Assembly (NCBI RefSeq): GCF_000092105.1
Contig: NC_014148.1
Coordinates: forward strand, 1,290,001 to 1,322,000
DNA length: 32,000 bases
Reading direction: 5' to 3'
From: Planctopirus limnophila DSM 3776
GTDB lineage: Bacteria; Planctomycetota; Planctomycetia; Planctomycetales; Planctomycetaceae
Shown: one piece after another, positions 29,808 to 32,000 of the stretch
How positions within the stretch are numbered: position 1 is the first letter of the stretch
Layout: the number at the start of each line of letters is the position of its first letter
The notes under the pieces: model-generated
What the model was told of the DNA's origin: nothing
Database searches by the model: none
The model's input: the letters and a program-made list of their open reading frames with translations, nothing else
Position numbers and translations under genes: made by a program

Positions 29808-30065
29808 TCAGCATCTCGGAATTTCTCTAATAACGTTGGGCTCCTGTTGGTTCCAGTCATCCCCAAATGTCTCAGCAAGTATAACAATTCCAAGCAATTC
29901 GGGAGGGGAAAAACCAGAAAGCCGCAGGCCAGGCTTTTTCGCATACCAAACTGTTGTGTCATTTTCACTGCAATCAGCGTATAGTTCATACCCCTTGTCT
30001 TTAAGAACGATCAAACAAGGATTGTATGTATTTCCAGCAGCGGTTATGTTTAGCGTGTTTGGCAT
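29808..30065 (-). CDS. Small hypothetical protein; candidate immunity protein of the second RHS toxin, 3' end clipped by the IS3 element
   Basis: Starts 20 nt after the RHS stop (ATG 30065, preceded by AAGGGG). The track start at 30098 would overlap the RHS gene by 13 nt. The last sense codon and the stop (TGC TGA, 29808-29813) are the first 6 nt of the IS3 inverted repeat. GC is low. Confidence 0.55.
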   Translation of the reverse strand: MPNTLNITAAGNTYNPCLIVLKDKGYELYADCSENDTTVWYAKKPGLRLSGFSPPELLGIVILAETFGDDWNQQEPNVIREIPRC

Positions 30066-30085
30066 GTTATGAGTGCCCCTTTCAT

Positions 30086-32000
30086 TTAGTTTTTGCATCT
30101 CTTAAGTAGTCCTGCCGGAATCTGCCCTTCAATCAATATTTCATGATTTCTTATCATTGCGTCCCTCACATCTTTTGCTTCTTTTACTTCATCAGCTGTT
30201 CCTGCCATCATCCTCTGATAGACCGATTCGGGAGTATGTATCTTAATGATTCCATCTTGCTCAAGTTTATGTAACGCATCAAACTCTGCCTTGGAGATAT
30301 AACGATTGTCGGGGGCGTCTGTGAATCTTTTTGCATCTTTAAGCATTGTCGAGAAGGAGGTGTATCGACTTGTGTCATTTCGCCGTTTTCGAAGAACATG
30401 TTCTGCAAACGTCTGTATTTTAGCTAGAGCCGCTTCAGCTAATGGAATTCCCACTGGACCACCATCCCAGAAGTCGTCAGCTCTAAATAATTTCCTCCCG
30501 AAGAAATCACTGAGGTCGATGTTGACTCCGCTGAAACTGACGGAGGCAGACTGCCGAACAAAGGTAACCGAAAATGGGAGGGAGGAGAGAGCGACATCGG
30601 CCCCTGTCTGAAAACAGGGCTTTTTGACGAAAATGATCACCTTGTCCGCTGTATCCGCCGCTACAAAGACCTCGCGGGCCACAAACTCGACTCCGTCTGC
30701 TCCTTCTTCAATACTCTTGTTGAGTGAAGTTACTCCACCGCGTGCCTGCCGCTTCTCGGCCATGTGTTTAAAGGCAATCCAATCGATGTCCCACGCCGGA
30801 TTAATCGACGTGTTACCGCGATCGAAATACAAACGCTCCCGGTGAGGGATTGCTTGCAACGCCGACTCTGTCCAGGTGTTTGCGATAGTAATGTCACAAT
30901 AGTATTTTGTTTCGTTGCAGCAAACGGTCCCGGTGGAATTACAATGAACTTTATCGTTGCTTGTTGGAGCGGGCGTGGAGCAGTTTGTGGCAGACGTTGT
31001 GCAGGTCCCTGATACGCCGCACGAGGTTGAACCGGCGGGAGCGGATGGCTGGTTTACTGGGGTGGGCGGCTTGTGAGGCTGAGGATCGTTAGAACAATTT
31101 CTGTAGAACAGTAGGTCAATTTCGTAATTTTCGGCAGCATGTTGTAATGAACCATCTCGAAGCCATTCGACAATTTGTGTATAATGGACTTTGCAATTGG
31201 GGTTTCGAAGCACCTTTCCGTCTACTCCCCCGGTATATAAGACATCTCTTGTAACATGGGAGTTCGCATCAATGGTGCCCAATGATTCACATTTTGTTTT
31301 TCGTACTCCCCAAAAAACACCGGACTCGTCCCAACACAACTGAAGTTCCCCAGATTTTGAACCCGTTCCCCAGACGAGACGGTAGTTGATATTGGACTTT
31401 CCGCTCGGATCGGTCTGATTGACAGGATCATTTCCTACGTACCGATAGAAGTTGGAATCCCCAGCCTCCAACCCCAGCGGATCCTCAGAAGTGAAATTAG
31501 CTGCATGAGGGTCGTAGTCCCGCGCCCGCAGGTTGTACTCGCCCGTGGCCTCTTCTACCCGGTAACCCTGCGCACCGATCCAGGTGTAAGGATTCTCGGT
31601 GGAGCCGGTTTGCGCCAACGCCTTGCCGAACGCTTCATAGCTGTATTCATCAGTCAGTGTGCCCGTCCCGTCACTCAGTGAGCGGGTACTGCCGATGGCA
31701 TCGAACTGGTAGAACGAGGTGTCTGCATCCTGGGTACGGCTCAGCACCATCCCATAACCGCCGGGTTGAGCGGTGTTCTCTGCCAGCACCACATTGGTAT
31801 CGTCGGTCTCCAGCAGAATGACCTGATCGTCCCAGAGGTAACGGGTGATATCGATCCCATCATCCCGCTGGATCTGCCGTTCATCGTTGGCTTTGTTAAC
31901 CGGAGCCCAAGTGTACGTCACCACCTCGGATGTCGGGAGTTCCACCGCGATGTTGTGGTTCAGCACGTCGAACGTGTAGGTCGTGATCTCGCCGACTGGT
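30086..32000 (-). CDS. RHS repeat-associated core protein, C-terminal part (N-terminus beyond right edge) with 436-aa unassigned C-terminal extension
   Basis: The frame is open to the window edge. The RHS core terminus reads YNLRARDYDPHAANFTSEDPLGLEAGDSNFYRYVGNDPVNQTDPSGK, with DPSGK at 31397-31411. GC drops from about 60% (31440-32000) to about 38-43% (30100-31390) at that point. Confidence 0.9.
   Translation of the reverse strand, partial: PVGEITTYTFDVLNHNIAVELPTSEVVTYTWAPVNKANDERQIQRDDGIDITRYLWDDQVILLETDDTNVVLAENTAQPGGYGMVLSRTQDADTSFYQFDAIGSTRSLSDGTGTLTDEYSYEAFGKALAQTGSTENPYTWIGAQGYRVEEATGEYNLRARDYDPHAANFTSEDPLGLEAGDSNFYRYVGNDPVNQTDPSGKSNINYRLVWGTGSKSGELQLCWDESGVFWGVRKTKCESLGTIDANSHVTRDVLYTGGVDGKVLRNPNCKVHYTQIVEWLRDGSLQHAAENYEIDLLFYRNCSNDPQPHKPPTPVNQPSAPAGSTSCGVSGTCTTSATNCSTPAPTSNDKVHCNSTGTVCCNETKYYCDITIANTWTESALQAIPHRERLYFDRGNTSINPAWDIDWIAFKHMAEKRQARGGVTSLNKSIEEGADGVEFVAREVFVAADTADKVIIFVKKPCFQTGADVALSSLPFSVTFVRQSASVSFSGVNIDLSDFFGRKLFRADDFWDGGPVGIPLAEAALAKIQTFAEHVLRKRRNDTSRYTSFSTMLKDAKRFTDAPDNRYISKAEFDALHKLEQDGIIKIHTPESVYQRMMAGTADEVKEAKDVRDAMIRNHEILIEGQIPAGLLKRCKN
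30089..31396 (-). other. Post-DPxG variable region of the second RHS protein (436 aa; two segments split by a Pro/Thr/Cys-rich linker)
   Basis: There is a proximal segment of about 105 aa (SNINYRLVWGTGSKSGELQLCWDESGVFWG...) and then a linker NDPQPHKPPTPVNQPSAPAGSTSCGVSGTCTTSATNCSTPAPTSNDKVHCNSTGTVCCNETKYYC. A distal segment of about 265 aa follows (…RERLYFDRGNTSINPAWDIDWIAFKHMAEKRQARGG…). No toxin family was recognised. Confidence 0.6.

Follow-up and report, generated by a model that had tools for sequence, protein, structure and literature searches.

A probable ADP-ribosyltransferase-like toxin domain and its candidate immunity gene at the C-terminal end of an RHS protein from Planctopirus limnophila

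The subject of this investigation was a gene for an RHS protein that is located at the right-hand end of a 32,000-nucleotide stretch of DNA from Planctopirus limnophila DSM 3776 (contig NC_014148.1, positions 1,290,001 to 1,322,000), hereafter referred to as the window. The C-terminal region (CT) of the protein, which begins after the last DPxG motif of the RHS core, is followed on the same strand by a small open reading frame (ORF). We consider it probable that the region encodes the effector end of an RHS polymorphic toxin together with its immunity protein, and that the CT is composed of four modules, the last of which is a minimal ADP-ribosyltransferase (ART) of the R-S-E type. The terminal domain is assigned to an uncurated family of ART-fold toxins by predicted fold and motif, without significant sequence similarity, and the degree of confidence just expressed applies to the explanation as a whole. 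Coordinates of the relevant features are provided in Table 1. Unless CT numbering is specified, residues of the terminal domain are numbered within a 144-aa segment (window positions 30089-30520), and the family alignments contained 43-44 members.

The terminal domain of the CT belongs to a sizeable family. An exhaustive phmmer search with the entire CT as the query, run against 1.84 billion representative proteins, gave 82 matches, namely the protein itself, 79 proteins aligning with CT residues ~297-436 only, and two aligning with residues ~142-286 only. A profile search with an alignment of the terminal domain yielded 143 proteins. Where these are named, they are referred to as 'hypothetical protein' (one as 'RhaS with RHS repeats'), and none is listed with a Pfam domain. 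Most consist of 140-200 aa and stand alone, and the longer ones contain RHS repeats with DUF6531 or an eCIS core domain. Indeed, the terminal domain is positioned at the C-terminal ends of both RHS proteins (P0007 and P0024) and eCIS_core/DUF4157 proteins (P0016 and P0046). In P0007 and P0024 it starts 2-4 residues past a DPxGL motif, and in P0049 a HINT-like VHNC motif immediately precedes it; accordingly, the toxin begins a few residues ahead of 'FRGDD'. A distribution over RHS, eCIS-core, and HINT carriers as well as standalone genes is, to judge from the sequences, polymorphic-toxin behavior. No model in NCBIfam, PADLOC, or PHROGs matches the domain. Pfam DUF7587 (PF24494) does not match the window sequence, and its subthreshold matches to 15 of the 43 relatives (best E-value 1.4e-4; 18.1 bits for P0008) fall below the gathering threshold of 27 bits. 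ADPrib_exo_Tox gave a subthreshold match with one of the 43 (E-value 0.0012). Neither the toxin family nor that of its small partner is named in Pfam-A (2025), NCBIfam (2026), PADLOC, or PHROGs.

The AF2 model of the terminal domain, generated with the family alignment as input, is characterized by a pLDDT of 96.3 and a pTM of 0.89. In a Foldseek search of the PDB with this model, all 15 of the top matches were cholera toxin A1, heat-labile enterotoxin (LT), pertussis S1, EcPltA, or CARDS, with E-values of 0.019-0.13 and probabilities of up to 0.90. The TM-scores normalized by the query are 0.33-0.48 (mostly 0.39-0.48, with EcPltA/pertussis at 0.33-0.37) and lie under the usual same-fold thresholds. 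Named among the top 15 matches in the viral library were RNA 2'-phosphotransferase, a T4-type ADP-ribosylase, and DarT, all of them weak. These three are members of the ART superfamily. The invariant columns of the family are F12 and R13 in '(F/Y)RGDD', H41 in 'HV', S55 in 'TSFS', F66, and N125 and E127 in 'N-x-E-(I/V)-L-I-E-G-x-I-P'. In the model, R13 is located on the β-strand formed by residues 10-14, S55 lies on strand 53-57, which is followed by helix 60-64, and E127 opens the last long strand (residues 127-134). The arginine, the S-x-S motif, and the glutamate are predicted to be placed as in the canonical R-S-E ART layout (R / S-T-S / ExE). The hallmarks by which R-S-E ARTs are recognized, an aromatic-Arg pair, an S-x-S motif leading into a helix, and a glutamate, correspond here to F12-R13, S55, and E127, which are invariant in 44 sequences.

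With cholera toxin A1, LT, pertussis S1, and EcPltA the terminal domain shares an aromatic-Arg pair on strand 1, a conserved histidine, an S-x-S strand-helix unit, and a glutamate followed by hydrophobic residues and 'G.IP'. The motifs of cholera toxin, LYRAD...H44...STS...EQEVSALGGIP, can be compared with LFRAD...H...TSFS...NHEILIEGQIP in the window toxin. Unlike the members of the cholera/pertussis clade, the domain is ~50 residues shorter, carries N-x-E rather than E/Q-x-E, shows no significant sequence match to them, and is paired with a candidate immunity gene. This last feature points to a bacterial target and not to a host G-protein.

The best sequence match in the PDB, obtained with the alignment designated A1, is a weak one (E-value 0.23) to chain B of 9ZDM, the RhsF-CT of Chromobacterium violaceum. 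S55, F66, and E127 align with residues 58, 69, and 110 of that chain, and a constant offset of 1387 converts these to S1445, Y1456, and E1497. RhsF-CT is described there as ART-like (bioRxiv 10.64898/2025.12.06.692724), its toxicity requires R1403, Y1456, and E1497, and S1445 is the alternative or candidate serine of the triad by structural superposition. In both systems a small (~126-140 aa) ART-like domain forms the C-terminal end of an Rhs protein, a small gene that encodes an immunity protein (RhsFi) in the case of RhsF and a candidate one in the window lies directly downstream, EcPltA-type toxins are the best structural relatives, and the Arg-to-Ser spacing is 42 residues. The terminal family differs from RhsF-CT in having a ~20-aa longer helical insert between the serine and the glutamate and an invariant histidine. 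Whereas the RhsF toxin directly follows its core and employs a FIX domain and the type VI secretion system, in the window protein ~296 aa intervene, and the similarity in sequence between the two is not significant (E-value 0.23 with A1, no match with a narrower alignment, A2). Salmonella TreTu was considered as the closest relative and rejected on account of a differing catalytic layout (R6, S25, H31).

Several observations weigh against the assignment of the region to an ART-type toxin and its immunity gene. In the Foldseek search of the PDB, no match reached an E-value of 0.001 or lower, every TM-score was below 0.5, and all matches were weak. The (Q/E)-x-E motif is not present; the family displays an invariant N-x-E (N125 and E127) with asparagine at the first position. 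None of the curated ART models (Enterotoxin_a, Pertussis_S1, and ADPrib_exo_Tox) reached threshold with the window sequence, and the first two were matched by 0 of the 43 relatives. An hhalign comparison of the family profile with an approximate sequence of cholera toxin A1 returned a probability of 0.4%, and the match to RhsF-CT was lost with alignment A2. The ratio of nonsynonymous to synonymous substitution (dN/dS) for the toxin domain versus that of Planctopirus hydrillae is 0.68, and the mere seven changes on which it is based do not suffice to demonstrate purifying selection. For CT residues 1-292, the AF2 model, built from a three-sequence alignment, has a pLDDT of 42.5 and was too poor for a structure search, and any help that the N-segment, linker, and middle module might give in entry or release is suggested by analogy with CdiA-CT and colicins only. 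Finally, relatives of the small ORF occur with no adjoining toxin in L004, L006, L009, and one JGI contig, and in a distant cyanobacterial clade of the toxin a HEAT-repeat protein follows in place of the small-ORF family. The lone copies are as expected for orphan immunity genes, and the different toxin clades seem to use unrelated immunity proteins.

The first-pass annotation, which was made from the sequence of the window, had noted an ORF of 85-96 aa within 20 nt of the RHS gene in the position expected for an immunity gene, and the present analysis bears this out. Translation yields 85 aa from the ATG at 30065 and 96 aa from that at 30098. The homologues align from the second ATG onward, and a product of 85 aa is therefore the most likely. 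There are 33 of these homologues, all unnamed, with lengths of 81-102 aa and amino acid sequence identities of 43-66%. In six independent loci (L007/L008, L013, L014, L015, and JGI contig 4911), a relative of the small ORF is situated 14-20 nt past a standalone toxin homologue. The same order is observed in the window and in L001 and L010-L012, and the spacing in the window agrees with that of the standalone pairs. A comparison of the hit tables suggests several more pairs. Given that adjacency to a toxin homologue has been kept in six independent loci, the small ORF most likely represents the immunity gene for the terminal toxin, a role assigned from position and linkage. The two predicted products are opposite in charge, with isoelectric points (pI) of 8.7 for the basic terminal domain and 4.5 for the small protein, and both coding regions have a GC content of ~43%, as compared with 57.5% in the RHS core. 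The GC content of the standalone pairs is usually below that of the surrounding loci, which fits a mobile two-gene cassette. The dN/dS of the small ORF versus that of P. hydrillae amounts to 0.28 for the reading frame itself, as opposed to 1.0-2.1 for the alternative frames, on only eight substitutions. No match to Imm41 or to any other immunity or antitoxin family was found in Pfam and NCBIfam (E-value ≤1 for both), PADLOC (≤0.01), or PHROGs (≤0.1), and the small-ORF homologue P0218 has no Pfam match.

The polypeptide chain that links the RHS core to the toxin is unusual. As had been proposed from the sequence, translation confirms that exactly 436 aa (48 kDa) follow DPSGK, and that this is an unusually long CT. 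A Pro/Thr/Cys-rich linker had also been described, and it was readily located: the low-complexity stretch at CT ~101-165 contains 11 Thr, 9 Ser, 9 Pro, and 7 Cys in 65 residues, with six linker cysteines at CT positions 126, 132, 139, 152, 159, and 160. The division into two segments of ~105 and ~265 aa had to be revised, however, given that the distal part consists of two modules, CT 162-286 and CT 297-436. The tail is composed of four parts, namely an orphan N-segment, the linker, a middle module, and the ~140-aa terminal toxin, and is not bipartite. The statement that neither segment could be recognized holds for the N-segment, which has no relatives, but not for the terminal domain, which is recognizable as a putative ART-fold toxin. 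Likewise, a GC drop of ~20 points exactly at the DPxG junction gave way to one of 10-14 points (57.7% to 43.7% in 300-nt windows), with a fall of ~29 points at third codon positions. The composition of the CT is a mosaic with no single GC step: the N-segment is at 44.5%, the linker at 55.8%, the middle module at 52.8%, which is near the window average, the terminal domain at 42.8%, and the small ORF at 43.0%. A word-indexed protein search with the whole CT as the query returned no match, no usable match to its parts was found in Pfam, NCBIfam, PHROGs, or PADLOC, and phmmer and profile searches of the PDB sequences with CT queries gave nothing significant.

No relative of CT residues 1-140 besides the protein itself was identified in the exhaustive phmmer search, and the N-segment has no matches in Pfam, the PDB, PHROGs, or PADLOC. 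Its dN/dS versus P. hydrillae is 0.09, on only four changes. The middle module is common to two other proteins, P0034 (E-value 4.8e-13) and P0062 (E-value 1.6e-6), both of which are covered by the phmmer matches in this stretch only. The blastp identities are 34% and 31%, respectively, and the alignment contains 30 invariant columns. Both are RHS proteins with a very similar core, and in each a differing N-segment of its own follows DPSG, and then a P/S/T/C-rich stretch at the position matching that of the linker, and then the middle module. Their C-terminal ends are unrelated to each other and to the terminal domain of the window protein. The middle module, shared as it is among proteins with differing N-segments and ends, points to a general layout of core, variable N-segment, linker, conserved middle module, and variable toxin. 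An assignment of the alternative C-terminus of P0034 as DUF4258-like was dropped when hmmscan gave no match. The ~296-aa spacer between the core motif and the toxin appears unusual even inside the terminal-toxin family, since in P0007 and P0024 the toxin starts almost immediately after DPxGL. In architecture the tail resembles CdiA-CT and the colicins, whose N-terminal and catalytic C-terminal parts are both variable and recombine independently of each other. In the RHS proteins compared, it is the N-segment and the toxin that vary and the middle module that is kept. The likeness is one of architecture only, with no similarity in sequence or structure. A rather unlikely reading, in our estimation, is that the spacer is more than filler and that the middle module serves the delivery or release of planctomycete-type RHS toxins in a manner not previously described, accompanied by a variable N-segment and a Cys-rich linker, onto which toxin cassettes are swapped in the manner of CdiA-CT entry domains, with the N-x-E mini-ART acting on a new target. 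As a side possibility within that proposal, the toxin/small-protein pair may also function as a defense effector beside retron type XIII reverse transcriptases.

On the basis of these results and of published work, a four-step mechanism can be put forward. The CT of the intact protein would be cleaved at DPxG and kept inside the RHS shell, as in the published Rhs/Tc structures, and would then be delivered into a competitor cell, with the ~296-aa pre-toxin region probably aiding entry or release. There the terminal domain, as its predicted fold and motifs suggest, would bind NAD+ via R305, H333, S347, and E419 (CT numbering) and ADP-ribosylate an essential bacterial target. In the producing cell the acidic 85-aa protein, the gene of which is linked to that of the toxin as described above, would bind to the basic toxin and block the R/S/E active site. 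Together the toxin and immunity genes would constitute a low-GC mobile cassette that exists elsewhere as a standalone two-gene unit.

The main rival with respect to activity holds that the terminal domain adopts the ART fold but functions as an NAD+ glycohydrolase (NADase) that depletes the NAD(P)+ of the target cell. NADase toxins have been reported for Rhs and PAAR proteins. With ~140 aa the domain is also very small and in the model appears devoid of long target-recognition loops, and the asparagine that opens its 'ExE' motif does not conform to the consensus for transferases. The best structural matches, however, are all transferases of the cholera/pertussis group, and the arginine, serine, and glutamate typical of transferases are invariant. 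RhsF-CT, the closest relative to have been characterized, has been termed ART-like, with an activity that is likewise putative. On balance, an NADase strikes us as improbable. That the resemblance to the ART fold is altogether coincidental, such that the domain is a nuclease or a pore/membrane effector in which the conserved R/S/E residues are structural, is in our opinion highly improbable. It would account for the lack of any statistically significant match and of any curated ART profile matching the window sequence, but 15 of 15 top PDB fold matches from one ART clade are unlikely by chance, and the invariant residues fall on canonical elements, with one constant offset relating them to S1445, Y1456, and E1497 of RhsF-CT.

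With respect to role, the main rival is a toxin-antitoxin or defense addiction cassette that became fused by chance to an RHS gene, with the small protein serving as an antitoxin within the producer. In its favor, most of the homologues belong to standalone pairs (140-185 aa plus ~89 aa) that have no delivery domain and usually a lower GC content than their surroundings; one pair is found directly after a type XIII retron reverse transcriptase. Set against this are the fusions of the toxin domain to RHS, eCIS-core, and HINT modules, its position beside PAAR and VgrG-like genes in L002, a pattern by which secreted polymorphic toxins are defined, and the fact that no PADLOC model matches either protein. 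Moreover, standalone cassettes are a known recombination reservoir of polymorphic toxins (PMC3482391). We judge a chance fusion to be quite improbable, with the proviso that the immunity and antitoxin roles are not exclusive of one another. Both main rivals fit most of the data, and the explanation that we favor is still that of a delivered ART-type toxin and its immunity protein.

Some aspects of this system are already known. R-S-E ARTs on RHS toxins, including those of planctomycetes, were catalogued as 'Tox-ART-RSE' in 2012 by Zhang et al. (PMC3482391), and the crystal structure 9ZDM is that of a similar mini-ART Rhs toxin. New are the uncurated toxin and partner families, the N-x-E variant of the catalytic motif, and the four-part CT with its shared middle module. 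The results provide a working annotation for two 'hypothetical' families, a ~140-aa mini-ART-like toxin with at least 143 relatives, which moves among RHS, eCIS, and HINT carriers and standalone cassettes, and its partner of ~85-90 aa. To our knowledge, the routes of toxin delivery in Planctomycetes are not understood, and the rare RHS layout, in which a middle module is placed between the cleavage site and the toxin, offers a possible handle on RHS toxin entry in these bacteria. Current views of polymorphic toxins are not overturned.

Table 1. Coordinates of the features of the RHS locus (window positions unless a locus is given)
Feature	Position	Strand	Basis or remarks
Terminal toxin domain (putative), CT 297-436, ADP-ribosyltransferase-like fold	30089..30508	-	homologues, AF2 model, Foldseek
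Putative catalytic codons (CT numbering)	R305 30482-30484; H333 30398-30400; S347 30356-30358; N417 30146-30148; E419 30140-30142	-	family-invariant
Candidate immunity gene, 85 aa + stop	29808..30065	-	ATG 30065, 20 nt past RHS stop; pI 4.5
Middle (pre-toxin) module, CT 162-286	30539..30913	-	common to two other RHS proteins
Pro/Thr/Ser/Cys-rich linker, CT 111-161	30914..31066	-	composition count
CT N-segment, CT 1-110, orphan sequence	31067..31396	-	44.5% GC, no relatives
DPSGK, last DPxG motif of core, core/CT boundary	31397-31411	-	translation; CT residue 1 = codon 31394-31396
RHS repeat-associated core domain, end of RHS shell	31400..31639	-	NCBIfam TIGR03696 match
RHS gene stop codon (TAA)	30086-30088	-	
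Decayed IS3-family element, abuts small-ORF 3' end	28535..29816	-	terminal inverted repeats; Pfam rve, rve_2, rve_3, HTH_21 on broken ORFs
DDE_Tnp_1 transposase gene, 497 aa, precedes RHS ORF	L010 188-1924; L011 97-1833		

The minus-strand RHS ORF enters from the right end of the window, and the N-terminus of the protein falls beyond it. NCBIfam TIGR03696 (Rhs_assc_core) matches residues 121-200 of the visible protein with an E-value of 2.1e-17 and a score of 63 bits (cut-off 32.5). The final residues of the core are DPLGLEAGDSNFYRYVGNDPVNQTDPSGK, and the translation displays DPLGL...DPSGK. On the basis of published Rhs/Tc structures, DPSGK is the presumed boundary for autoproteolysis. As in other Rhs polymorphic toxins, the core ends in DPxG and the CT is variable, differing between paralogues. 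Indeed, the CTs of the two RHS genes in the window had been called unrelated, and no blastp match between the 436-aa CT and that of the other gene (14135-20455, 2106 aa) was found at an E-value of 10 or lower.

The closest relative of the locus is that of Planctopirus hydrillae JC280 (L001), where the CT is 98% identical in amino acid sequence, the fusion is uninterrupted, and the same small ORF and downstream genes are present. The orthologue is a protein of at least 1782 aa with at least 1346 aa of YD repeats upstream. An assembly or fusion artifact was rejected given that this independent assembly contains the same uninterrupted ORF. The first-pass annotation had held that separate encoding of the distal part in relatives would imply a gene fusion or such an artifact. 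Separate encoding is indeed seen, in that many genomes contain the last ~140 aa as a gene of its own and two RHS proteins have the middle module joined to other C-termini, but it reflects normal cassette shuffling and not an artifact. An orphan CT/immunity array, which the first-pass annotation had suggested looking for, was not found downstream; glycosyltransferase genes on the other strand follow the insertion sequence.

That insertion sequence, which belongs to the surroundings of the toxin system and not to the system itself, is a decayed IS3-family element with 31-nt terminal inverted repeats (28535-28565 and 29786-29816) that are 90% complementary. Its orfA is frameshifted near 29700-29730 and its orfB is split at ~29200-29222. 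The TGA stop codon of the small ORF (29808-29810) lies within the right inverted repeat. The small ORF continues for nine residues past the conserved WNQQxP motif, equal to the shortest homologues, and its length is within the family range; at most, a short, variable acidic tail has been lost. A target-site duplication was looked for but not found, and in-silico excision of the element at many junctions produced no convincing restored C-terminus for the small ORF. P. hydrillae has this element at the corresponding site, with an orfB that is less disrupted (a 238-aa ORF, L001 6150-6866).

Over the 3 kb that were compared, the sequence of locus L010 is identical to that of the window, and L011 shares its gene arrangement. 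The RHS ORF in these two loci is ~902-919 codons long. Homology to the P. hydrillae protein begins abruptly at its residue 935, just after the transposase gene listed in Table 1, and neither an intact N-terminal trafficking domain nor a complete shell was found in L010 or L011. Comparison with these loci indicates that, in the strain from which the window derives, the 5' end of the RHS gene is either interrupted or cut short. With the gene cut by a transposase gene and the IS3-family element at the 3' end, the locus looks degraded and is probably disabled for toxin delivery in this strain. It would probably represent a relic whose immunity gene is still of use, and the product of the small ORF may still be protective against relatives with an intact copy, such as P. 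hydrillae. When L010 (2407-4591) and L001 (3216-5400) are compared, the last ~2.2 kb, which extend from the end of the core through the CT into the start of the small ORF, are 97.6% identical. Upstream of this segment the RHS bodies are too diverged for megablast, and the proteins are 91% identical over 880 aa, which suggests recombination or faster divergence in the repeat region.

Three loci with homologues of the toxin or its partner have neighbors of note. In L002, a contig from Richelia sp. (4001-7690), the gene that comes after a 156-aa standalone toxin homologue encodes a 197-aa HEAT-repeat protein, and PAAR and VgrG-like genes adjoin. In L015 (3431-5749), a retron type XIII reverse transcriptase (PADLOC RT_XIII, E-value 6e-152) precedes a standalone toxin homologue and an 89-aa homologue of the small ORF, and in L004 (7025-8270) a homologous reverse transcriptase is followed by a small-ORF homologue alone, without the toxin. 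The published accessory proteins of type XIII retrons are SWIM/wH and HEAT/ARM proteins. These differ from the toxin/small-ORF pair, and a link to type XIII retrons as a known system was set aside; the adjacency may reflect a chance neighborhood or a defense-island association.

As for the remainder of the window, the first RHS gene (14135-20455, minus strand, 2106 aa) encodes a Ser-rich N-terminus and a CT of ~190 aa. No Pfam matches were found for the ORFs downstream of it (12941-14098 and 12119-12745). Its CT contains a Pfam AMOP domain (aa 1958-2073, E-value 1e-8, 35.9 bits versus a cut-off of 25), which has been described chiefly in extracellular proteins of eukaryotes. The two RHS loci are separated by a cluster (22724-28451) of genes for glycosyltransferase, epimerase, and fucosyltransferase functions (Glyco_transf_25, Glyco_transf_10, and Epimerase). 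Two further context genes on the minus strand encode an EVE-domain protein (9404-10009) and a lysyl-phosphatidylglycerol synthase-like membrane protein (8265-9443).

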